NCBI GenBank assembly: GCA_963728405.1
Contig: CAVSJV010000005.1
Location: 192,001 to 256,000, forward strand
Reading direction: 5' to 3'
From: Methanomassiliicoccaceae archaeon
GTDB lineage: Archaea > Thermoplasmatota > Thermoplasmata > Methanomassiliicoccales > Methanomassiliicoccaceae
Length of the DNA: 64,000 bases
Position numbers and translations under genes: made by a program. A model generated the notes under the pieces. It made no database searches. It saw nothing but the letters and a program-made list of their open reading frames with translations, and was not told the origin of the DNA. This document shows, piece by piece, positions 9,627-62,090 of this stretch; the stretch's first letter is position 1, and each line of letters starts with the position of its first letter.

Positions 9627-10914
9627 ATGCTCACGCTAATCAAGGATGCCAGGATCGTTACCCAGAATGCTGGACGCCAGGTGATCGATGGGGACATTAT
9701 GGTCGAGGATGGCATTATCAGACAGGTGGGGGGGCGGGTACGGGGCTCCGCTGATGTGGAGATTGACGCCTCTGGGGATGTCATCATCCCCGGTCTGATA
9801 AACACTCACACCCATGTCTCGATGTCCATCCTCAAGGGCATCGCCGACGACCTCCCGTTCCCCAAGTTCCTGGACAAGGTGTTCGCGGTGGATGCCAAGC
9901 GCACTGAGCGGGACATTGAGGCCGGCGCCATGCAGGGCTGCCTGGAGATGATCCGGTCGGGGACGACCACAGTTCCTCGATCTCTATTACTCCGAGGATA
10001 TCATTGCCCGGGCGGTGGAAGAGGCAGGCATCCGCGGGATATTGGGCTGGGCAGTGCTCGACCAGCAGTTCACTACCCAGAGCGGGGTCCCCCTCGAGAA
10101 TTGCAAGCGGTTCCACCAGCAGTTCAAGGGCCGGCCGCGTATCTACCCGGCAGTAGGGCTTCAGGGGGTCTACGTGTGCTCGACCGAGACCTTCCAGGGA
10201 GCGAAGGAGTATGCCCTGGAGAATGACCTATTGCTTACCTTCCACCTCTCGGAGACCCGGAAAGAGGTGTCCGACTGCAAGCGCAAGGAGGGCAAGCGGC
10301 CGGGCGACTACCTCGCTTCCATTGACTTTCTGAACGATCACTGCGTGGCCGCCCACTCCGCCTGGCTCACGATCAACGAGGTCCGCGAGATCGCTCGCCG
10401 CGGTACCAAGGTGGCCACCTGCCCGGTCTCCAACATGAAGCTGGCTACTGGTGGGGTCGCCCCGATACCGGAGATGCTGAGCAACGGCGTCACCGTCTCC
10501 ATCGGTACTGATGGCTCTACGACCAATAATGGCCTTGACATGTTCGGAGAGATGAAGATGCTGTCCCTCCTGCAGAAGGCCAGCCGCTGGGATCCCACAG
10601 TCCTCCCCGCCCAGAAGGTCCTGGACCTGGCTACCATCGAGGCGGCCAAGGCCGTGCGAATGGACCATATGATCGGTTCGGTGGAGGTGGGCAAGAAGGC
10701 CGACCTGGTCATCCTGGATGGTAGGGCCGCGAACCTGCGCCCGGCCCGGTTAGACACCGTTGTATCCAACATCGTATACTCATCCTATGGTCTGAACGTC
10801 AAGACCGTGCTATGCGATGGGAAGGCGGTCATGCTAGACCACAAGGTGACTACGGTGGACGAGGAGAATGCGTTACAAGAGGCAGAGGAAGCGGCCCAGG
10901 CCCTCCTTGGTTAG
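9627..10914 (+). CDS. Amidohydrolase (MTA/SAH deaminase-like); frameshift near 9971
   Basis: PGLINTHTH, HLSET, AHSAW, CPVSNMKLATG, GTDG; two overlapping ORFs 9627-10226 and 10015-10914. Confidence 0.88.
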
Positions 10915-18377: not shown

Positions 18378-19045
18378 ACTTTCTCCTTCACTATCGTTCC
18401 CTCATTCGTCCCTACGACCACGCAGGTCACCAGACCGAGGAATAGGCCGCTCTCCACAACGCCCGGGATCGAGTTGAGCTTGGACTCAAGCCTCTCCGGC
18501 TCACCTATCTCTTCGAACTTACAGTCATAGATGGCATTGCCATTGTCGGTGATGAACGGAGTGGCCCCGCCCCTCAGGGTCGCTACGCAACCCAGTGCCT
18601 CGATGGCTCGTTTGGTCCGTAGGTGGCTGAACTGTACGACCTCCACCGGCAGAGGGGTCTTGACCCCCAGGGTCTCGACCATCTTGGAGTCGTCCACGAT
18701 GATTATCTCCCGTTTAGAATAATAGGCCACGACCTTCTCCCGGAGCAACGCTCCGCCCAGCCCCTTGATCAGCCGGAACTGAGGGTCCACCTCGTCCGCA
18801 CCGTCGATGGTCAGGTCGATGTGTTCGACCTGGTCCAGGGTGGTCAGAGGAATGCCCAGTGAGCGGGCCTGCTTCTCCGTTTCCACCGAGGTGGGTATGC
18901 CCACGAGCTTGTAGCCTTCCTTGACCAGCTTGCCGATCTCGTCTACCGCCAGCCTAGTGGTCGATCCGGTACCCAGGCCGAGCACCATACCGTCCTGCAC
19001 GAACTCCACGGCCTTCCTGGCCGCCTGAAGCTTCTTCTCGCTCAT
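18374..19045 (-). CDS. rpiA: Ribose-5-phosphate isomerase A
   Basis: GLGTGST, DGADEVD, IKGLGGALLREK, PGVVESGLF. Confidence 0.96.
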   Translation of the reverse strand: MSEKKLQAARKAVEFVQDGMVLGLGTGSTTRLAVDEIGKLVKEGYKLVGIPTSVETEKQARSLGIPLTTLDQVEHIDLTIDGADEVDPQFRLIKGLGGALLREKVVAYYSKREIIIVDDSKMVETLGVKTPLPVEVVQFSHLRTKRAIEALGCVATLRGGATPFITDNGNAIYDCKFEEIGEPERLESKLNSIPGVVESGLFLGLVTCVVVGTNEGTIVKEKV

Positions 19046-24699: not shown

Positions 24700-25150
24700 T
24701 CGGGAGAGATCCGGTGGACCGGACCGGCTACCCGGTCAGTCTTTCAGGTACCCCATGGGCCAACCGTACGAAGAATCAGATGAGCGATCGTACTTTACAG
24801 CACCTTCTTTCGTCAAGGTGAGGTCTCCATCGACCGGGTCGACGTTCCTTCCGATTCCTATGGGCCACGATCACCTCGTCGTCACAGACCTACTTTCATC
24901 GGACCCTCGCTCCAGGCCTGGTCGATAGGGGCGATCATCTATCAATACGCGAGGAGTAGGTACAGCAGGGGGCGGCCAACAGCAGGGATTGGGCCCCGGC
25001 CCTGGGCACACCGGTGGTTCTGACCGCGCATTCCTCCTCGCACAATTCATAGTTGGTCCGAAGGAGAACGAAGGGAGGGAAGAACTAGGGAGCTAAGCCT
25101 CACTTCTTCCGAACGGCGATGGGGCAGGTCAACGCAGCCGTAGGCTTCGC

Positions 25151-25567
25151 TTATCCCTTCCCCATCCATTTGACCTTGAGCGCATGGGTGAAGTTCACGT
25201 GCTTAGCTAGATTATAGGAGAAATCATCGAAAGCGAACCCCCTTACCATTTCGCCGCAGAAGGGACATCGCACCGCCTGGGGAACATCCTCCCCCGGCAG
25301 GCGCCTTTCCACTGGACCATGGGACTCTTTGATCGCCTCGTCTTCGAAGGAAAGAGGAGAGAGGTCCTCCTCCCTGACCTCGGTCCACGGATCCTTCCCA
25401 TGATCGGGGGTAGCAGTCCTGCTTCCTAGATCACAGAGGTCCTTGATCTCATGCACATCACGCATATGGACCTGCAGCGTTAGGCTGAGGTCGACGATCC
25501 CCTCTCCCGTGATCTTCTGATTACATAGCGGACATAGTACATCGGTCAATGGCGAACCCTCTAGCAT
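25151..25567 (-). CDS. Hypothetical protein with two CxxC...HxxxxH zinc-binding motifs
   Basis: CPLC...HMRDVH and CPFC...HVNFTH. Confidence 0.7.
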   Translation of the reverse strand: MLEGSPLTDVLCPLCNQKITGEGIVDLSLTLQVHMRDVHEIKDLCDLGSRTATPDHGKDPWTEVREEDLSPLSFEDEAIKESHGPVERRLPGEDVPQAVRCPFCGEMVRGFAFDDFSYNLAKHVNFTHALKVKWMGKG

Positions 25568-25609
25568 GTAAAAAAGGGTGCTCTCCTGATAAAAAATGAA
25601 CCCTTTGTC

Positions 25610-26285
25610 CTAAGCCACGGCCCGTAGCAACTTAACCGCCTCCTCCTCAGTGAGGTCATGCCATCGTTTGTAGGCGTCCGCCACGGCGAAAGGAGGCGAG
25701 CGGACGTTAAGGCAGAACAGCTCATCGACGTATCCAGCGATCATTTTGGCCGTATTGCCCGAGCCGGTCGGAACCGCTACCACGATCTTTTTAGGACGAT
25801 CGACACTCACCCTTTTAATAGCCGCCAGCATGGTGTAGCCCGATGCGAGCCCATCATCGACGAGGATGACGACCTTTCCGTTCAAGGAAGGAAAGGGCCG
25901 GTCGCCCCTCAAGGCCCGGTCCCGGGACCGACCCGCTTCGATGGCCCTCTTTTTTGCTAGTTCGACTGTCCGCTGCCGTGAGCCCCAGCTCCGTCATCAG
26001 ATCATCGTTCAGTATCAGGCCTCCGTTAAGGTCCACCGCCCCGAATCCCGCTTCCGGCTCATAGGGTATCTGTAACTTACGGACGATGACCACGTCCATA
26101 GATAATCCGAGGCCCTTCGCTATCTCGGTCCCGACCGGGATGCCTCCCGATGGTATCGCCAGGACGATAGCATCGGCCCCCCTGTATGGACTTAGGAAGC
26201 GGACCAGCATCCTGCCGGCATCGGTCCGGTCCTCGAAGACGAATCGCTTATCCCGGTACCTCGGCTCCTCTACGATCATGCCCAT
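25610..26285 (-). CDS. Phosphoribosyltransferase family protein; frameshift(s) near 25930-25980
   Basis: FEDRTDAG, AIPSGGIPVG, VRKL..P; second frame VILVDDGLASG. Confidence 0.85.
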
Positions 26286-26452
26286 AATATCGATCGGACG
26301 TTCATTTGGTCCACACCATTATAAAATGGATATCTAGCGCCCTGGGGGTTACAATGCCGGGAAGGACCTAGTTCGGCAGCCTAACGAATGATGGGGCAGT
26401 TGAGCTATGCAATATGGGAACTGTTGAAATTAGATTATTATTTACTATAATG

Positions 26453-26600
26453 GATGGTGATCGGTCTGCCCGAACTTAAGCCCCTGGCCATCTAGATGGC
26501 CTCATTATCTTAGTCAAAGCTCTAGGATAGAACTTTAGCTCCTTACTCGGTAAAACCTCCTTCTTCTTTTTCTTTTTAATAACTGCTGCTCTCCTGTTCT
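26453..26600. repeat. Repeat copy A: decayed tRNA-Pro 3' end plus ~130 bp flank shared with copy B
   Basis: GATGGTGATCGGTCTGCCCGAAC...CTCATTATCTT...GAACTTTAGCTCCTTACTCGGTA...CTCTCCTGTTCT aligns with 29586-29734. Confidence 0.85.
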
Positions 26601-26924
26601 AACACTCAAGACAGCTGTTTGGCTTCAATAACATGACATTAAACAGGAATGTGATTGCCATGGGGGCCTAATGATATCAAGTATCTTGAAGATGACTGGC
26701 TAAAGAAATAAATTTCCTTAAACAGAAAATAGTGGGCTGCGGACACGAAAAGTAAGAAGGAACCAGACCCCCCCTCCTTTCTTCATCAAATAGCTGTAAA
26801 GTAGTGACATATTCATTAATGAAAGAGGGAAGTAGTTTCGCAGCCCATTTCCTTGTTGCGCACCTTCACCTACCATTTTTGCGGTGGAGAGGTTACCGGC
26901 ATTGTCGTCCTCTTGATCTGGGCC

Positions 26925-27791
26925 TCAATTCTCCATTATGTGCACGATCGCCAGCCGCCAGGCGATACCTTCCGCGCCCAAGCTCGTCCAATAGCACTCT
27001 TTGTCGACCGTCGTCTGCGAGCTCAGGCTTATAAAGTAAGAGTAAGTGCCAAAGCCCGTGGACTCATTGACCATTCTCCAACCAATCGCCTGCACCTGCG
27101 GGAAGGCTTGGTAGTCCGGACCGTAGATGATGTTCATGCCGATCTGCGACGCATCGGCGTCATAGATCTCCACGCCATCGGACTGCATGCACCAGTAGGT
27201 AAAACCCGTACCGGCCACAAGCTGCGGCAGAGTGGCATTCATAAGAGCGCTGACATTATAGAGAGTGCTCACCGCGCCGATGAACTTGCCTTCATTGTCG
27301 AACACGGGACAGGCATACCCAGAGCCGCGTTCGATTCCCCGAGATTGGAAGGTATTGCTCATTGTGGGGACCTTGTACAAAAGGAGCTCGGCGGTCTTGT
27401 TGCCACCGCTCAGGTCCACGCCTTCGAGATAGCTGTACTGTGCCGGCTCCACAGCCTGCACGATGCCGTTCGTATCGAATGTCAAGATGTCGATGGCGAA
27501 GGGATTGAGCGCCAAGGTATGATTGATCTCATCTCGCGCCATCGTTCCGTTCAAGCCGGTCGCGCGCAACTGGAGGGCGAGGTCGTAAGTGAGGTTTCTT
27601 ACCATACCTATCTCTTCTTCGACCGCCGTCCTTCCCTTGTCCAAAATGGTGTTCATCTGCAGCTTTGTGGAGGAAGCTGTGCTATCCTTGCTCAGCTGTG
27701 CATCGGAGGTGAGCAGGACAACGGATACCGAGGTGGCAATGAGAAGGACCACTACCAAGATGGCCAAGAGCGCTTTAGCGCGGGTTATCAT
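26925..27791 (-). CDS. Membrane-anchored extracellular Cache-like domain protein with no output domain
   Basis: N-terminal TM helix; GYACPVF..GKFIGAVS, DGVEIYD..QIGMNI, W-R-L C-terminal strand. Confidence 0.75.
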   Translation of the reverse strand: MITRAKALLAILVVVLLIATSVSVVLLTSDAQLSKDSTASSTKLQMNTILDKGRTAVEEEIGMVRNLTYDLALQLRATGLNGTMARDEINHTLALNPFAIDILTFDTNGIVQAVEPAQYSYLEGVDLSGGNKTAELLLYKVPTMSNTFQSRGIERGSGYACPVFDNEGKFIGAVSTLYNVSALMNATLPQLVAGTGFTYWCMQSDGVEIYDADASQIGMNIIYGPDYQAFPQVQAIGWRMVNESTGFGTYSYFISLSSQTTVDKECYWTSLGAEGIAWRLAIVHIMEN

Positions 27792-28126
27792 GTCCGCCCG
27801 AACGCCTTTCGCGGTAATGAAGCCTAAGACTGCCGCCCCTGCTCCCACATGGCCTACTCGTAGAACGACGTCCCGACAAAGCCTCGGTGGATGTCCGCTT
27901 GAACACCACCAATTGACCACGGACAAACGGAAGGTCAATACCTAACGATCGAAGCGCACGAGCCGTCGCACCGTAACGCCGAAGGCATGAGGACGGAGCG
28001 CGGGTCGATAGATGAAGCAATGGTTCTTCGCTAGCAAGAAGCTAAGTGATCTGGGCGGGGAGGCGCTGGTAATAGTGTCCGACACCCCCTAATGACAACA
28101 GATTTGTGATGTCTGGATATAGATGA

Positions 28127-28144
28127 TGGCGGGTCTGCCTGGAC
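28127..28144. repeat. Copy C of the decayed tRNA-Pro 3' end (att-like)
   Basis: TGGCGGGTCTGCCTGGAC versus tRNA TGGTGGGTCTGCCCGAAT. Confidence 0.6.
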
Positions 28145-28546
28145 CGGTAACGCCACCCATCCATATGGTATTTAATTCGCAGCAATAACTCCCTTTTCGG
28201 CGTTTCTTGAGCTGAAGCCCATCCCTTATCCAACCCAACGAGATGGCGGTCGATCTTCTCGAGCTGAAAGCTGGCCATAAGCATCGATCCGGAACTCATC
28301 ATAATTGAGTTCGGAGTGAGAATGTCGGTCATGATTTGGTTGGGGCTAGGGTTGTTGCTGGCTGATGTATTCTTATTGCTTGGGTCATAGATCTCCTTGT
28401 AAGGGTTGAACTACTCCCCTCCTTTCCTATGCGATACTCTTCGCTTTCAAAGGAACGGCACGCAGCGAAGTTTAACCCACTGTGTCCCCGAGATGCTTGT
28501 GGCCTAGCACTGACCATGCCACTTTTCGTGGTATAGCGACTGACAA

Positions 28547-29368
28547 CTAGTGGCGGAGGAGCCATCGGAAAGCGTGCTCGATGAACTCCTTGCCGTCATG
28601 CTCAATGCAGCGGCCATGCGCGATTATCACCTTATCAAAGTCCCACGACAGCAGCCTCTCAAGCGACTCCCTCGCCCGATCTCGGTCAATGAAGGACATC
28701 TCGATGTCGAGGGGCACGCCGCCGTAGGGATACGCAACACCGGCGACCCTGAGCAACCTACTACGGAGGCGTTTGCCATCAGTCCGATGGCTGATCTGTA
28801 TCAGGTCGTCCAGGATTAGGGTCCTGGACCCCCTATGAAAGAAGATCACCTCCTCGATCAGAGGATTGCCCCTAAAGACCATCTGGTCGATGTCTCTTGC
28901 CCAGCCTGAGGCTGGAAAGTCGCCCAGGGTTCCCGTGAGCGGCAATCCTCTCTTTCCCAGCACCATGGCGCCTCTGAATCTGCCCTTGGTTTGAGGGGGC
29001 CCCCATAGCTCCGCCTCTGGGAACAGCGTATGCCACGACTCTAACCTCCATAGGTGTCTTGGCGTCCCTGCCACGATGTATCTCACTGGTCCCAGTGACC
29101 CAAGGTATTGCAATGTGCTGAAAGACAAAGGAACAGGAGAATCCACCCAGAGGGCGCCGCCATCGAGCTTGACGGCAACCATCCGGGTTGTGAATGGCAA
29201 TCCCATATCATGGACTATCGGGCCTTCAAATACCCATAGGTCCTTCGAGAACTCGCGCACATGATACTCTCGGTTCTTCGCGATAATAAATCTCCCGACT
29301 GCCTTGCGGGCATAACATGTCGATCGCTCCCCCTCCACCCGCGCCCAGATGATAAGGTCGCGCAACAA
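28547..29368 (-). CDS. DUF4336-family protein (MBL-like); true start probably near 29260
   Basis: FTTRMVAVKL..LWVDSP, GPVRYIVA..H, EVIFFH..TLILDD, WDFDKVIIAHG. Confidence 0.78.
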   Translation of the reverse strand: MLRDLIIWARVEGERSTCYARKAVGRFIIAKNREYHVREFSKDLWVFEGPIVHDMGLPFTTRMVAVKLDGGALWVDSPVPLSFSTLQYLGSLGPVRYIVAGTPRHLWRLESWHTLFPEAELWGPPQTKGRFRGAMVLGKRGLPLTGTLGDFPASGWARDIDQMVFRGNPLIEEVIFFHRGSRTLILDDLIQISHRTDGKRLRSRLLRVAGVAYPYGGVPLDIEMSFIDRDRARESLERLLSWDFDKVIIAHGRCIEHDGKEFIEHAFRWLLRH

Positions 29369-29585
29369 ATGGTCGGTTGAGATAGCGACGAAGTAGCTCG
29401 GGCATTCGGGACCGGATGAGACACGCCCCTTCTATGCGCAACTTCAGAGGGATGTGTTCTACGAAGAGCAGGACAGGATGCTCATGATGGGGGGTAGCTA
29501 ACAGTCCAATGCCGCCCCTTCGAGGTCAATCCAGATAGAACATATTTTCTATATACACATGAAGATAATGGTGCTGGATGAGAGT

Positions 29586-29734
29586 GATGGTGGGTCTGCC
29601 CGGACTTCCACCACTGACTAGCCAGATGTCTCATTATCTTGGTCAATGGTATTAGGATGGAACTTTAGCTCCTTACTCGGTATAACCTATTCCTTCTTTC
29701 TTTTTTCTTTGAAAAAGTAGTACTCTCCTGTTCT
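29586..29734. repeat. Repeat copy B: tRNA-Pro 3' end (15-bp exact) plus flank shared with copy A
   Basis: TGGTGGGTCTGCCCG (29588-29602) is identical to 33614-33628; 23-bp exact GAACTTTAGCTCCTTACTCGGTA shared with 26530-26552. Confidence 0.88.
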
Positions 29735-29950
29735 CCCATTTCCGTCAATATTCTGGCAAAACAGAACAGGAACTTAACAGGATAATTGTCACTGTTCCTA
29801 CTGTTTATGGGCAAATAGCCCCATTAGGTGTTATGCCCGGATTGAAGAGGTTTTTCTCTCACCAAACGACCAAGGTTGCACTTTATCATAATAGATACTG
29901 ATATAACCCTCCACCAATAACGTTGATTCAATGCCTAGGAGGCGTCGACG

Positions 29951-31398
29951 GTGAGGAGCGCCAACTCAAAGAGGGCGGCCCTTCTAGGGTCGATCCTTTT
30001 TCCTCTGGTGCTGGCTCAGTTCGTGTGTAGCTACGCCGGCTCAAATATGAACTGTGGCGGTCAACAGTATTGCCAGTGACCTGGGCACGGACTGTGCACG
30101 GCGTCCAGATAGCCATTACTCTTTTCACGCTCACCATGGCCGCCTTGATGATCCCCGGCAGCAAGCTGACCGACATCTGGGGCCGCAAGTTCACTTTCCG
30201 AATCGGGCTCATCGTTTACGGCTTGGGTGCGCTGGTGGGGGCATTGGCACCTGGCATAGGCATCCTATACATCGGTTATTCGATTATGCAAGGTGTAGGA
30301 TCGGCCCTCTTGATCCCGCCGGTCTATATCTTGGCCACAGTGAACTACACTGGTACGGAATCGCGCGCGAAAGCCTTTGGAGGGATCAGCGCCGCGGGGG
30401 GGATCGGAGCTGCACTCGGCCCGCTAGTCGGCGGCTTCTTGACTACCGCGATCAGCTGGAGAGCTTCCTTCATCCTACAGGCCCTGATCGTTTTGCTGAT
30501 CTTCGTCCTGGCCCGCCGGATCTCCGATCCTGGCGTACAGGGTACCAAGCCCAAGCTCGATATTATTGGAACCATACTCTCGGCATCGGGACTATTCTTT
30601 GTGGTATTCGGTATCCTCGCAACGGGAACCTATGGATGGTTCTCAGCGACGGTCTGGATACTTGTTGCGATAGGCATGATCATTATTGGCCTCTTCTTCC
30701 TGCACATCCGGTCCGCGGAGAGAAAGGGGAAGTCACCGCTCCTCTCGGCCCACATATTCCGTAACCGCACCTCTAACCTCGGGCTGGTGACGCAGTTTGT
30801 CCAATGGATGGTACTTCAAGGGGCCTTCTATGTGATCTCTGTGTTCTTCCAAACCGTTCGCGGGTTCAGTGCGGTTTCGGCAGGCCTGATAGTTACACCT
30901 GCAACGATCGGCATACTGCTGACAGGCACGAGAGCGAGGAAGCTGGCTACGAGAACCACTCAGAGGAGGCTCATCCGCATCGGCTTCGTTCTGACCACTG
31001 TCGGTATGATCCTGGTGATATTGCTACCATACCTCGCATCGGGTGCAGTCACTGCCAGCGTGTGGTATTTCGTTCCAGGTCTGTTCCTGATGGGGCTGGG
31101 GATCGGGACCATGCTCACATCCTCCGTTAATGTCGTCCAATCGGCGTTTCCAGAGAAAGACCAGGGTGAGATCTCTGGCCTATCGAGGAGCATGTCGAAC
31201 CTGGGCTCTTCCTTCGGGACAGCGGTTGCAGGATCGATACTGATCACGACGATTCTCCCGGAGACCCAGACCTATGGGTTTGCGCTCATCGCGATCATCC
31301 TCGTTTCGATCGTCGGCCTGATCGCGGCAATCCTTATTCCTCGCGATAGTGCCGCCCGATCCGAAAAGAAAGTTGAGGAGGGTGAAAATGCGGCTTAA
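29951..31398 (+). CDS. MFS transporter (DHA2-like, 14 TM); two frameshifts near 30052 and 30090
   Basis: GSKLTDIWGRK motif A, GAALGPLVGG; N-terminal ILFPLVLAQFVCSYAGSNMN lies in a different frame. Confidence 0.85.
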
Positions 31399-31573
31399 GC
31401 ATGGGAAATGGTCGAGTAAATATGTCACTGCGACCTTCGATGAGAATCGGTTCGTGCCCTGGCTTGGTCTCACCCAGAGTAAGTCAAACATAGAACAAGT
31501 TGAAGCAGAAATGAAAACGATGGAGCTAATGAAGATGTGTTGTGCTAAGTCATCCAGGAGGCGATTGTGTTGA
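31388..31573 (+). CDS. Small hypothetical protein (61 aa) overlapping both neighbours
   Basis: ATG overlaps the MFS end and the stop overlaps the GH15 start, suggesting translational coupling. Confidence 0.4.
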   Translation: MRLKHGKWSSKYVTATFDENRFVPWLGLTQSKSNIEQVEAEMKTMELMKMCCAKSSRRRLC

Positions 31574-33450
31574 TTTCTGGACCATTGAATGGTTACTGGC
31601 CCATCGAAGACTATGGGCTCATAGGCAACCGGCATGCGGCCGCTCTCGTGAACAGCGTCGGCTCGATCGATTGGCTGTGCTGGCCCCGATTCGACTCCCC
31701 ATCCATATTCGCAGGTATATTGGATCCGGACAAGGGTGGGAACTGGGACATCCAGCCGACAAGCGATTTCAAGAGCCATCATCGGTACCTGAAGGACACC
31801 AACGTCCTGGAGACGGTCTTCGAGTGTTCTCAGGGCAAGGTTGCGTTGCTCGATTTCATGGACATGACCTGGGCGGAACAGGATGTGGAAGGCGGCCCGC
31901 CGGGAAAGCTGATAAGAATCGTGAGAGGTCTGGACGGCAACGTGGAGATGAAATGCATCTGCCGGCCGCGACCCAACTATGCCCGCGACACCCCGAGAAT
32001 CAATCTAGGAGGCACCGAGGCATCCATTGGCCAGTTCGTGATCACCGGGCCTCAGGGGTGGCTGAAAGATGAGAACGACATGTCTCTTAATCAGACCTTC
32101 GTGGTCCGTCCGGGAGAGCAGCTCTACTTCACTTTGGCCAACGACCTGGACAAGAGCCCGCTGGCCTCCATCTCGGCAGCGCTGCAGTCGACCATGAGCT
32201 ACTGGAGGGGATGGGCTGATAAGTGCATGCTCCAGGGCCCTTACCGCGACATGGTAGTCCGCAGCGCCTTGACCCTTCAGTTGATGACCTACCCGCCCTC
32301 GGGAGCGATCGTGGCCGCGCCGACCACCTCGCTCCCCGAGACGATCGGTGGTGAGATGAACTGGGACTATCGCTTCACCTGGCTCCGGGACGGCTCCTAC
32401 ACGCTGCTCAGCCTGGTAATGGCCGGCTACCCTGACTTTGTCGAAAGATATGCCAAATGGGTGTACAAGACCGTCCAACCAGGTAACGTACAGATCCTCT
32501 ACCCCATCGTCCCTGAGGGGCAGACCAAGGAGGAGACCCTGGACCATCTGAGAGGGTACCGTGATTCGAGGCCGGTCCGCATCGGCAACGAGGCGGCCAA
32601 CCAGGTGCAACTCGATGTGTACGGCGAGCTGATGGGAGCGGGATACTTCGCATGGCGGTCGGGCTTGTTCACCCCTCCGGATGGCGGAAAGAGGATACGC
32701 GCGGTCCTTGATTGGGTATGCGATAACTGGCAAATGCCGGACGCCGGTATCTGGGAGGTGCGGGGAGGCAACCGCAATTTCGTCTATGGAAAGGCCATGC
32801 TGTGGTTAGCGCTGGACCGAGGGATCCAGATGTTCGAGGCGATGGATCTAGAAGGTGATATCAAGCGCTGGCGGGAGACGAAGGACATTATCCGCGAGGA
32901 GATCATGACCAAGGGATGGAGCACTAAGCTCAACGCCTTCAAACAATCGTTCGAGGACGAGTACCTGGACGCGGTCAATCTCATGCTTCCCATCATGGGC
33001 TTCATCGATGGGAAGGATCCCCGCATGCAGTCGACCATCGACGCCACATTGAAGAACTTGGTGGTCAACGGCCTGTGCTACCGGTACAACGAAGCTCCGG
33101 TGGGGGTGGCCGGGAAGGAGGCGACCTTCACATTATGTACCTTCTGGCTGGTTAGTGCTATGATCATGGCCGGTCGGGTCGAGGAGGCCCGCAAGATCTA
33201 CGATAATCTGCTGGCTAAGGCCACTCCCCTCGGATTGTTCGCCGAGGAGCTCGACCCGGAGACTGGAGCGCACGTCGGCAATTTCCCGCAGGCCTTCTCC
33301 CATCTGGGGGTCATACATGCGGCGGTCAACCTTGCCTACTTCGGAGGCATCGGCAAAATAGAATTCGACCTCAGGGAGGTGGCCAATAAGGTGTACGGGA
33401 GTAGCGAGGAAGGAAGGCCCATGGTGGTCAGCACCACGGCCCAAAAGTGA
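31567..33450 (+). CDS. Glycoside hydrolase family 15 (glucoamylase/trehalase-like)
   Basis: IEDYGLIGN, AAPTTSLPE..NWDYRFTWLRD, QLDVYGE, GIWEVRG, GNFPQAFSH. Confidence 0.93.
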   Translation: MLISGPLNGYWPIEDYGLIGNRHAAALVNSVGSIDWLCWPRFDSPSIFAGILDPDKGGNWDIQPTSDFKSHHRYLKDTNVLETVFECSQGKVALLDFMDMTWAEQDVEGGPPGKLIRIVRGLDGNVEMKCICRPRPNYARDTPRINLGGTEASIGQFVITGPQGWLKDENDMSLNQTFVVRPGEQLYFTLANDLDKSPLASISAALQSTMSYWRGWADKCMLQGPYRDMVVRSALTLQLMTYPPSGAIVAAPTTSLPETIGGEMNWDYRFTWLRDGSYTLLSLVMAGYPDFVERYAKWVYKTVQPGNVQILYPIVPEGQTKEETLDHLRGYRDSRPVRIGNEAANQVQLDVYGELMGAGYFAWRSGLFTPPDGGKRIRAVLDWVCDNWQMPDAGIWEVRGGNRNFVYGKAMLWLALDRGIQMFEAMDLEGDIKRWRETKDIIREEIMTKGWSTKLNAFKQSFEDEYLDAVNLMLPIMGFIDGKDPRMQSTIDATLKNLVVNGLCYRYNEAPVGVAGKEATFTLCTFWLVSAMIMAGRVEEARKIYDNLLAKATPLGLFAEELDPETGAHVGNFPQAFSHLGVIHAAVNLAYFGGIGKIEFDLREVANKVYGSSEEGRPMVVSTTAQK

Positions 33451-33613
33451 AACTGAGCCAGGTACGCGTCCTGTAACCAAGGCCTATTAGAACGATCGAG
33501 CTCGGATGCTCGATCGTTTGCAACCCCTCTTTGCCCATCATAGACCGTACTCTCCGAAAAACGGGAGGAAAATATAGAGAAAGCAGGATCCAATCATTAC
33601 TTGAGATGGATAG

Positions 33614-33691
33614 TGGTGGGTCTGCCCGAATTTGAATCGGGGTCTAAGGCTCCCAAAGCCCCAAGGATGGACCAAGCTACCCCACAGACCC
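33614..33691 (-). tRNA. tRNA-Pro(TGG) with encoded CCA
   Basis: Reverse complement GGGTCTGTGGGGTAGCTTGGTCCATCCTTGGGGCTTTGGGAGCCTTAGACCCCGATTCAAATTCGGGCAGACCCACCA. Confidence 0.93.
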
Positions 33692-33807
33692 GTGCTACCG
33701 GTGTAAGGCGACCTCATCAATAAAGCTTATCTTTTGGTCTATTCCGGGCCAGCGTTCTTGATCGTGATTTAGGAACACTTTTTAGCTTGGTCGGCGATGG
33801 CAGCGAG

Positions 33808-34971
33808 ATGAGAAAGGTAGGGGTCATCGCCGCCGTCATAGTGTTGGCGGCCATCCTGATCGGGGCGGGGTTCTACATCGTGGTGTTGTCGATGAACGGC
33901 AGGGCCGTCGGGTTCGATCCCACCGAGCTAAACAAGCCCACCATCAACTATGCCCAGGTTGTCGACAACACCCTGCCGACGCCGCTGACCGCCACGGTCC
34001 CGACATACGACGATGTTAACCTTTTCTGGAACATCACGGAGGACGTCTATGCTGGCTTCGGCGGAGCGCTGGACCTCACCATCCAAAACAAGAATCCCGG
34101 AAAGATGTTTGTTTATTCTTTTGGCCTACAATGGGTTACCGACGGCAGCTCCTACTTCCGCAATTGCAGCGTCACCATCGACCACAACCAGAAGACGCAT
34201 GTAGGGTTGCTGATCTTCGGGGCTCCCTCCGCCGGGAACCGCGACTACAAGCTCGTGATCAAGGCCGCCGTCTCCAATGTACTGGGAACCGCGTGGCATG
34301 ACATCGGAGAGCTGCCTAGCACTTCCAACGAAGCCCTGATAATCGATATGGGCGATCCCATCAACTATAACGTCGATCTCAATGTCGGCAGCTTCTACAA
34401 CCGCATCAACGAGCGGGTGAGCTACACCGACGTTTCGGTAGTGGCCAACTATGTCGAGGCGAAGTATCCGGGTAGCTACAGCGTCCTGCAGATCGCCGAG
34501 GCGTACGCCTGGGTGAAGCAGAACGTGAACTATCTCACGGACCAATCGGGCGACTACTGGCAGAGCGCCAAAGAAACGCTGGACCTGAGGACGGGCGATT
34601 GTGAGGACCACGCCATATTGATGGCGAGCATCATCGGTGCCCTGGGCGGAAGCGCCCGGGTCAATGTGATCCAGGAGCACGCTTTCCCCACCGTGTTCGT
34701 CGCTTCCACCTACGCCGACCTGATGAAGGTAAAGCTGTCTCTAGCCTCGTATTATGGTGTGGACGCCGCCACCTTCAAGATGGCCTACCTGACCGATGAC
34801 AATGGTTACTGGCTGGTCATCGATACCACCGGCTTCCCGTATGTCGGGGGCATCCCCGCCAAATCAGAACCGACCACCGCCGACGGGAACTGGACCGTTC
34901 AATCGAGCTACCTATACTTGATCGACGCGACCGGCGTCCCCGCGTCCAACGACCCGTTCGGCCTGTTCTAG
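33808..34971 (+). CDS. Membrane-anchored transglutaminase-like (Cys-His-Asp) protein
   Basis: N-terminal TM helix; DYWQSAKETL..GDCEDHA, EHAF, IDTT. Confidence 0.85.
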   Translation: MRKVGVIAAVIVLAAILIGAGFYIVVLSMNGRAVGFDPTELNKPTINYAQVVDNTLPTPLTATVPTYDDVNLFWNITEDVYAGFGGALDLTIQNKNPGKMFVYSFGLQWVTDGSSYFRNCSVTIDHNQKTHVGLLIFGAPSAGNRDYKLVIKAAVSNVLGTAWHDIGELPSTSNEALIIDMGDPINYNVDLNVGSFYNRINERVSYTDVSVVANYVEAKYPGSYSVLQIAEAYAWVKQNVNYLTDQSGDYWQSAKETLDLRTGDCEDHAILMASIIGALGGSARVNVIQEHAFPTVFVASTYADLMKVKLSLASYYGVDAATFKMAYLTDDNGYWLVIDTTGFPYVGGIPAKSEPTTADGNWTVQSSYLYLIDATGVPASNDPFGLF

Positions 34972-61975: not shown

Positions 61976-62017
61976 GGAACGATAATGTGATTCATGCAAT
62001 ATAGAAGAAATGAAAAG

Positions 62018-62090
62018 TGCAGGTGCCGGGATTCGAACCCGGGCGTTTAGCTTGGAAGGCTAAAATCCTAACCAACTAGATTACACCTGC
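62018..62090 (-). tRNA. tRNA-Gly(TCC)
   Basis: Reverse complement GCAGGTGTAATCTAGTTGGTTAGGATTTTAGCCTTCCAAGCTAAACGCCCGGGTTCGAATCCCGGCACCTGCA. Confidence 0.93.

Follow-up and report, generated by a model that had tools for sequence, protein, structure and literature searches.

Probable remnants of a tyrosine-integrase element family in an integrase-less tandem array at tRNA-Pro of a Methanomassiliicoccaceae archaeon

In streptococci, integrative and conjugative elements (ICEs) accrete together with cis-mobilizable elements (CIMEs), which are remnants that are flanked by attachment (att) sites, lack recombination genes and lie in tandem at one att site; mobilisation of CIMEs in cis by a neighbouring element has been shown experimentally. 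For archaea, She and co-workers reportedly described gene capture in Sulfolobus, whereby integrated elements become trapped and build up at tRNA genes, with tRNA fragments at their borders. Archaeal integrases comprise an SSV type and a pNOB8 type; in the SSV type, the att site lies within the integrase gene itself, and integration divides this gene into an N and a C part, one at each border. Integrons combine an intI gene, an attI platform and a promoter, and their cassettes mostly consist of one promoterless open reading frame (ORF), lie in one orientation and end in attC. Here we describe a tandem array downstream of the tRNA-Pro(TGG) gene of a Methanomassiliicoccaceae archaeon, within a 64,000-nucleotide stretch (hereafter referred to as the window) that corresponds to positions 192001–256000 of contig C5 (CAVSJV010000005.1) of the source assembly G000 (GCA_963728405.1; 93.75% complete). 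As a first-pass annotation of the letters had proposed, copies of the tRNA 3′ end in various states of decay mark the limits of the array (Table 1). It holds remnants, not elements, and has probably arisen by serial site-specific integration of one plasmid-like element family at this tRNA, followed by deletional decay.

Each of the known systems resembles the array in part. As in a CIME, the segments are att-flanked and without recombination or transfer genes; unlike the streptococcal examples, the array has no conjugation genes and no cognate integrase that we could find. Tandem gene-bearing units separated by recombination sites recall an integron, but the sites are tRNA-derived, attP-like junctions with integrase-gene relics instead of attC hairpins, and neither intI nor attI is present. 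An integron was rejected as a candidate on the grounds that no integrase gene lies in or beside the array, that the genes occupy both strands and that some segments contain multiple ORFs. The tycheposons of Prochlorococcus integrate repeatedly at island tRNAs and leave fragmented integrases and partial tRNAs behind (bioRxiv 10.1101/2020.12.28.424599). Those islands share with ours tyrosine-recombinase elements that bring a replication module and cargo to tRNA genes, and successive arrivals push older ones into the island; our array differs in its archaeal host, in the Prim-Pol replication protein of the family and in the loss of every integrase from the window. The definition of a tDNA island used by Islander expects an integrase gene in the island (PMC4383910). 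An intact tRNA and its displaced 3′ fragment bound the array just as they bound such islands, but the array has no integrase gene and would be missed under that definition. To judge by titles and abstracts, none of the papers retrieved on Methanomassiliicoccales or Methanomassiliicoccus integrases describes this element family or its islands.

Table 1. Positions of the tRNA gene, junctions, cargo segments and genes of the array in the window.
Feature	Position	Strand	Remarks
tRNA-Pro(TGG), integration target	33614–33691	minus	ARAGORN; Rfam tRNA, 49 bits
att core, last 15 nt of tRNA-Pro(TGG)	33614–33628		reads TGGTGGGTCTGCCCG on the plus strand
Segment 1	29603–33613		MFS, small ORF without family, GH15
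GH15 glucoamylase/trehalase-like gene	31567–33450	plus	Pfam Glyco_hydro_15 1e-68, TREH_N
MFS transporter pseudogene	29951–31398	plus	Pfam MFS_1 5.6e-52 for 442-aa ORF
Junction 1	29574–29736		P′ remnant of ~14 nt 29574–29587, exact core 29588–29602, P arm 29603–29736
Segment 2	28142–29573		DUF4336 gene
DUF4336 gene	28547–29368	minus	Pfam DUF4336 1e-11
Junction 2	28127–28228		core 28127–28141 with 2 mismatches, divergent P arm 28142–28228
Integrase 3′-end relic, P′ arm of junction 2	28019–28126	plus	~32 codons, one frameshift, stop abuts core
Segment 3	26473–28018		Cache-like sensor domain
Cache-like sensor-domain gene	26925–27938	minus	337 aa, no output domain; Pfam HK-GC-Chemotax_sensor 8e-20, dCache_1
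Junction 3, terminal	26455–26600		core 26455–26472 decayed with indel, P arm 26473–26600

We searched the whole window for the 15-mer TGGTGGGTCTGCCCG with up to three mismatches and obtained seven matches. Four of them, all on the plus strand (33614, 29588, 28127 and 26458), are the copies that the first-pass annotation had reported, the last being its copy at 26455 read with extra bases. The three displaced copies have the same orientation as the 3′ end of the intact tRNA, and two of them are decayed: the core at 29588 is exact, whereas those at 28127 and 26458 have two mismatches each, the latter with an indel in its full extent, so that decay rises outward from the tRNA. The remaining matches, at 18889, 25012 and 37441, have three mismatches each and look like chance matches. 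Shuffled sequences gave a mean of 2.7 matches and 3 of 100 shuffles reached seven; the bare count is thus not significant. The similarity, however, extends far beyond the tRNA-derived core. The sequences 26453–26600 and 29586–29734 are 78% identical over 153 nt (E = 3e-24), and 28113–28144 and 29574–29605 are 78% identical over 32 nt spanning both sides of the core. The 28019–28139 sequence matches the tRNA end and adjoining integrase relic of a related genome, G003 (79% over 123 nt, E = 4e-22), and the tRNA end with its adjoining sequence in another, G007 (E = 8e-15). The core copies are therefore real, and the doubt raised at the outset, that they might be no better than chance matches, applies to their bare number but not to their extended flanks. 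Across G000, the exact TGGTGGGTCTGCCCG occurs at four places, namely tRNA-Pro(TGG), 29588, C10:2673 and C13:169799, and C13:177224 is a further copy with one mismatch. An Rfam scan of 25000–34500 returned tRNA-Pro as the sole match, the junction copies matching no known RNA.

To describe the junctions, we aligned 17 copies, 13 of them outside tRNA genes, from G000, G001, G003, G005 and G007. Read in the sense of the tRNA, the 13 non-tRNA copies have a common architecture of P arm, core and P′ arm. The P arm of ~100–150 nt has the conserved blocks GGTTTTACCGAG.. and ..CTATTGACCGAGATAATGA.CATCTGG, which are weaker in four copies (28127, C10, G003b and G003e). The core begins at the T loop or at the 3′ strand of the acceptor, ends with CCA and measures 15 nt in the window and 25 nt in both C13 copies. 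The P′ arm is N4-7 ATATCCAG TCATCTCAAA..TTGTCAATAGGGGG; read as its reverse complement, ATATCCAG gives the final codons of the integrase (..SGY, stop). The resemblance among the bases just 3′ of CCA, which had been noticed in the first reading of the sequence, is therefore genuine and arises because ATATCCAG derives from integrase-gene ends. In the alignment, the integrase-derived ATCCAG motif is present at most internal junctions and absent from those that end an array (26458 in the window, G007a and G005C2a). The lack of this P′ motif on the outer side of junction 3 is expected if that side is native flank. To the left of the array, at 25569–25588, the distal P-arm motif (..GCTCTCCTG, preceded by an A-rich run) occurs a third time, in the gap that separates two ORFs of the minus strand. 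This copy may be what is left of an even older junction, or simply a motif resembling a terminator.

An ATG just before the core in the P arm had led us to suspect an SSV-type split integrase. This candidate was dropped, as the frames are not conserved between copies and meet stops right after the core, the real integrase is whole and lies on the other side and on the other strand, and PF16795 (SSV-type) has no match in G000. Unlike the SSV type, the integrase of this family has its stop codon abutting the core, a non-partitioning arrangement. Since integration leaves the integrase whole, elements must become trapped through deletions that follow it.

Congeners have intact elements with this core. 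In G001, a core copy lies 16.4 kb beyond tRNA-Pro(TGG), and in G005, one lies 16.7 kb beyond tRNA-Pro(GGG) and bears the GGG tRNA's own variant (CGGACAG). The first gene after the tRNA is on the opposite strand, ends 0–3 nt from CCA and encodes a PF00589 tyrosine integrase (358 or 379 aa) whose ORF is whole in the integrated state, with the stop codon abutting the core. The second gene encodes a Prim-Pol protein (1002 or 1055 aa), and the cargo that follows consists of defence genes: Schlafen/AlbA_2, a DNA methylase, a type ISP restriction enzyme or a SIR2 protein. The integrase family is widespread and constant in its architecture. Of 151 genomes sampled from the order, 40 have a homologue (E ≤ 1e-40), and at 10 of the 12 best loci the integrase gene abuts a tRNA gene on the opposite strand (Pro in seven, Ala in one, Arg in one and an odd 98-nt "Cys" in one); a locus on contig C18 of G000 is one of the two without a tRNA. 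No relatives of the G001 integrase were found in IMG/VR, and a search of GTDB contigs with it returned a single close relative.

We then surveyed the sequence beyond every core by tblastn with the G001 and G005 integrases. Full-length integrases adjoin the G001 and G005 tRNAs, and at least 236 aa, up to the contig end, adjoin the G006 tRNA. Shorter stretches remain elsewhere: 100 aa at the G003 tRNA (66% identity to the intact G001 integrase, E = 1e-38), ~59 aa at G003d, 51 aa at G003a, 49 aa at the G007 tRNA, 46 aa at the G009 tRNA and 34 aa at G003e. In the window, the P′ arm of junction 2 is such a relic; its direct tblastn match is weak (E = 0.03–0.5), and at the DNA level it matches G003 9934–10056 with E = 4e-22. 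Nothing significant was obtained by tblastn at window positions 29588 and 26458, at the window tRNA or at the C13 copies.

The window has no PF00589 match, in agreement with the earlier remark that no tyrosine recombinase is visible in the array. G000 as a whole has 11, only one of which is on contig C5, at 501 kb. The nearest kin of the G001 integrase in G000 is an intact gene at C18:19156–20211 (54% identical). Two further copies of this sister integrase are present, at C7:359048–360119, where the gene is frameshifted and abuts tRNA-Ala(TGC), and at C4:277916–278917, where it has four internal stops. All three are followed by the same tRNA-Ala-type core, not by the Pro core. With their surroundings (C18:19156–21770, C4:277916–279000 and C7:359042–360119), only the C7 copy is at a real tRNA-Ala(TGC), the intact C18 and stop-ridden C4 copies being without an adjacent tRNA, and C18 has a second relic 1.5 kb further on. 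A search for an integrase that could serve the array, which the first-pass annotation had recommended, thus found no cognate Pro-type enzyme in the 93.75% complete G000 assembly.

We compared the tRNA-Pro(TGG) locus among the 11 genomes of the genus sample (G000 and its relatives, including G001, G002 and G003–G010). The locus is present in all 11, although in G002 it is split over two contig ends. Extra junctions were counted by nhmmer with a profile trained on 13 of these copies. There are three in the window, five in G003, two each in G001 and G010, one each in G007 and G005, and none in G004, G008 and G009; these counts leave out G006, whose contig ends inside the integrase gene. The nhmmer matches at 29552–29697 (junction 1) and 28081–28228 (junction 2) concern copies that are both in the training set. 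In G001 and G010, the core of the second junction has been lost.

G003 offers the closest comparison, being collinear with the window on both sides (86% identical on the tRNA side). Its homology stops at 33611, the 3′ end of the tRNA, and resumes at window position 26312 on the far side. The intervening 16.7 kb of G003 contain five junctions, whose cores have 1, 2, 0, 0 and 2 mismatches, and no integrase gene. Its segments contain, in order, ORFs of no assigned family; winged helix-turn-helix and ribbon-helix-helix proteins, two zinc alcohol dehydrogenases and a flavodoxin; a CLC channel; GH15 with PsiE; and MFS, so that a full junction separates GH15 from MFS. DUF2252 lies beyond the last junction.

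The locus content differs in all 10 relatives examined. The conserved far flank (window ~22–23.5 kb) could be placed also in G004, G008, G009 and G010, at ~9–18.5 kb from the tRNA. No empty attB, with the tRNA directly beside the conserved flank, was found among the placed flanks, as the window and G003, G004, G008, G009 and G010 all have at least ~9 kb of variable DNA in between. Homologues of GH15 and MFS recur in the tRNA-Pro islands of G003, G007, G008 and G010 in varying orders and orientations. The first-pass annotation had envisaged that relatives might have identical content with breakpoints away from the att-like copies. In fact, the content differs and the proximal breakpoint falls at the tRNA end, but elsewhere the points at which homology between copies and between genomes breaks off, such as 29884, 33450 and 33363, mostly coincide with gene ends and less often with cores. 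The tRNA-Pro(TGG) gene of G004 (~126–201 of its locus) has no encoded CCA (..CCCACTT), while all the other copies examined encode it; the G004 form may be the one least altered by integrations.

The cargo assignments made from the letters alone were confirmed by Pfam as MFS_1, Glyco_hydro_15, DUF4336 and a dCache-type sensor. The strands are mixed, with MFS and GH15 on the plus strand and DUF4336 and the Cache-like gene on the minus strand. Segment 1 holds two to three ORFs, and one G003 segment holds at least six. Single extra nucleotides near 30053 and near 30093 disrupt the window MFS gene, and tblastn of the intact 481-aa G003 protein needs three frames to cover it. With the window gene as the query, no homologue of the DUF4336 gene was found in any of 23 other genomes of the family. 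The Cache-like gene has a 72% homologue in G008, which sits elsewhere in that genome; no att junction or tRNA is present in the 3.9-kb locus around it. For neither of these two genes did the comparison thus yield another cassette setting. Just outside the array, a minus-strand phosphoribosyltransferase gene (25610–26285) consists of two overlapping ORFs (25610–25912 and 25854–26285) where G003 has a single ORF of 224 aa, which is probably the result of a frameshift. The second tRNA gene of the window is a tRNA-Gly(TCC) at 62017–62090.

A paralogue of the MFS-GH15 segment is located at C13:169.8–177.2 kb of G000. Its halves are 94.7% and 86.5% identical to their window counterparts, the GH15 genes showing the latter value. 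The GH15 of the C13 segment is broken into two ORFs, and further genes there are PsiE, one related to LURP-one and a fragment of an MFS gene. It is bounded by two junctions with 25-nt cores (169708–169854 and 177129–177277), with neither a tRNA nor an integrase there, and its flanks are not adjacent in the complete genome G008. The C13 MFS gene (175353–177000) shares both 1-nt insertions of the window gene relative to the intact G003 gene and has a further 1-nt deletion; an already broken gene must thus have been duplicated. Beside the core, ~95 nt are nearly identical in the two C13 junctions; beyond this stretch the outer one, C13b, switches to an arm of the window 29588 type. This chimeric arm points to homologous exchange or gene conversion between junctions.

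Two other loci of G000 have similar junctions. A second integrase-less island lies at tRNA-Pro(GGG) on contig C7 (51457–67232), with junctions at ~63.6 kb (one mismatch) and ~51.5 kb (three mismatches). Its cargo includes a TBP gene, nitroreductases, a HAD hydrolase, an SDR, an AdoMet decarboxylase, a saccharopine dehydrogenase and a C5-methylase fragment. On C10, a 7-kb contig of lower GC content, a junction with an exact core (2631–2775) lies between PAS histidine-kinase genes and a GNAT gene, and its arm resembles G003 junction b.

From these observations we infer the following course of events. An element of the family would encode, besides the Prim-Pol replication protein, a tyrosine integrase that is oriented convergently to the tRNA and whose stop codon directly adjoins the att core. 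Its attP would have three parts: a ~150-nt P arm, a core that reproduces the last 15–25 nt of the tRNA, and a P′ arm overlapping the end of its own integrase gene. On recombination, the element's copy would restore the tRNA and the displaced copy would end up at the far end. The next arrival would insert at the restored tRNA and shift older elements outward, and repeated insertion would turn the internal junctions into hybrids of P arm, core and P′ arm. Deletions would then take away the end with the integrase and replication genes, and the cargo end would survive with its P arm. In the G000 array, every integrase and replication module would have been lost in this way, leaving three cargo remnants that are presumably immobile at present. 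Serial integration followed by deletion would account for the complete attP-like appearance of the internal junctions, for integrase relics of arbitrary length, for the outward decay of the cores, and for the pseudogenes and the missing integrase. The relation of core decay to distance from the tRNA, which is seen also in G001, G010 and the C7 island of G000, holds mostly.

Several observations weigh against this explanation. No intact integrase with a window-type P arm (TTGACCGAGATAATGA..CATCTGG) was found in the 11 genomes of the genus, and by BLAST the similarity of the intact G001 and G005 elements to the window is confined to the core and ~20–25 nt, their P arms being more divergent. Core decay in G003 is non-monotonic. 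The C13 paralogue of the MFS-GH15 segment, bounded by junctions at a tRNA-less place, is left unexplained by simple accretion at a tRNA. The window cargo of transporter, glycosidase and sensor is unlike the defence cargo of the intact elements. Finally, with no empty site among the placed flanks, insertion is deduced and not seen.

The first-pass annotation had instead interpreted the segments as small non-autonomous cassettes captured in trans, in the manner of an integron. That att-flanked cassettes were moved by an integrase encoded elsewhere, in CIME-like or integron-like shuffling at tRNA-Pro, is possible but unlikely. Every internal junction is indeed a complete attP-like site with both arms, the MFS-GH15 segment occurs twice in G000, once at a junction-bounded non-tRNA site, and GH15 and MFS are split by a full junction in G003 and take other orders and orientations in G007 and G010; moreover, all eight aligned window-type P arms sit with segments that have no integrase. 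On the other hand, the relics measure anything between 0 and 100 codons, a spread such as deletions ending at random would produce, core decay grows away from the tRNA, and homology ends at gene ends (29884, 33450 and 33363) more often than at cores. No Pro-type integrase was found in the G000 assembly, the nearest one being 54% identical and tied to a tRNA-Ala-type core. The C13b chimera has its breakpoint at a distance of ~95 nt from the core, which makes homologous exchange a likelier origin than a site-specific one. Genes in both orientations and several genes in some segments also speak against cassettes. Together with the intact 16–17 kb integrase and Prim-Pol elements at the same core in congeners, the relics, the decayed cores and the MFS pseudogene favour accretion of autonomous elements followed by decay. 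There is a slim chance that the integrase-less segments constitute a dedicated non-autonomous lineage with full attP-like junctions, moved in trans by the integrases of visiting elements. In that case, each junction would keep a window-type P arm and the core along with the end of a dead integrase gene that bears the other arm, and the C13 copy of MFS-GH15 would be one such move.

It is quite improbable that the junctions arose mainly by segmental duplication, gene conversion and homologous recombination in an old island, without separate integrations. The two frameshifts common to the window and C13 MFS genes do indicate duplication of an already broken segment, the core-proximal 95 nt of C13a and C13b are nearly identical and the halves of the paralogue differ in identity (94.7% versus 86.5%). 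The three window junctions, however, differ mutually by 22–27% and flank unrelated cargo, junction 2 contains the integrase relic, and intact elements of congeners use the same core. That the repeats are chance matches or casposon target-site duplications is exceedingly improbable. Casposons use tRNA-Pro 3′ ends as targets and generate 14–15-bp duplications, with which the repeat length of 15 nt would agree, and the mismatch count by itself is not significant; but the extended flanks match at E = 3e-24 to 4e-22 and a tyrosine integrase occupies the same junction in relatives. A casposon was ruled out: G000 has no Cas1 (PF01867) at E ≤ 0.01, and no terminal inverted repeats bounding the window segments were found.

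Serial integration and decay at tRNA-Pro reveals no new mechanism. The loss of integrases after serial insertion is an ordinary way for genomic islands to grow, and the locus is comparable to tycheposon islands, CIME accretion and archaeal gene capture. Integrase-less islands can still be delimited by their attP-like junctions and integrase-gene relics, while tools that demand an integrase would miss them. If the integrase-less segments were a dedicated lineage, the tRNA-Pro islands of the genus would be the archaeal equivalent of an integron or CIME array, anchored at a tRNA and reshuffling genes of metabolism. Our analysis accounts for the variable region beside tRNA-Pro(TGG) in the six genus loci with a placed far flank, and it defines a family of integrase and Prim-Pol elements that occurs in roughly one in four of the genomes sampled from the order and through which methanogen chromosomes acquire genes for defence and metabolism.

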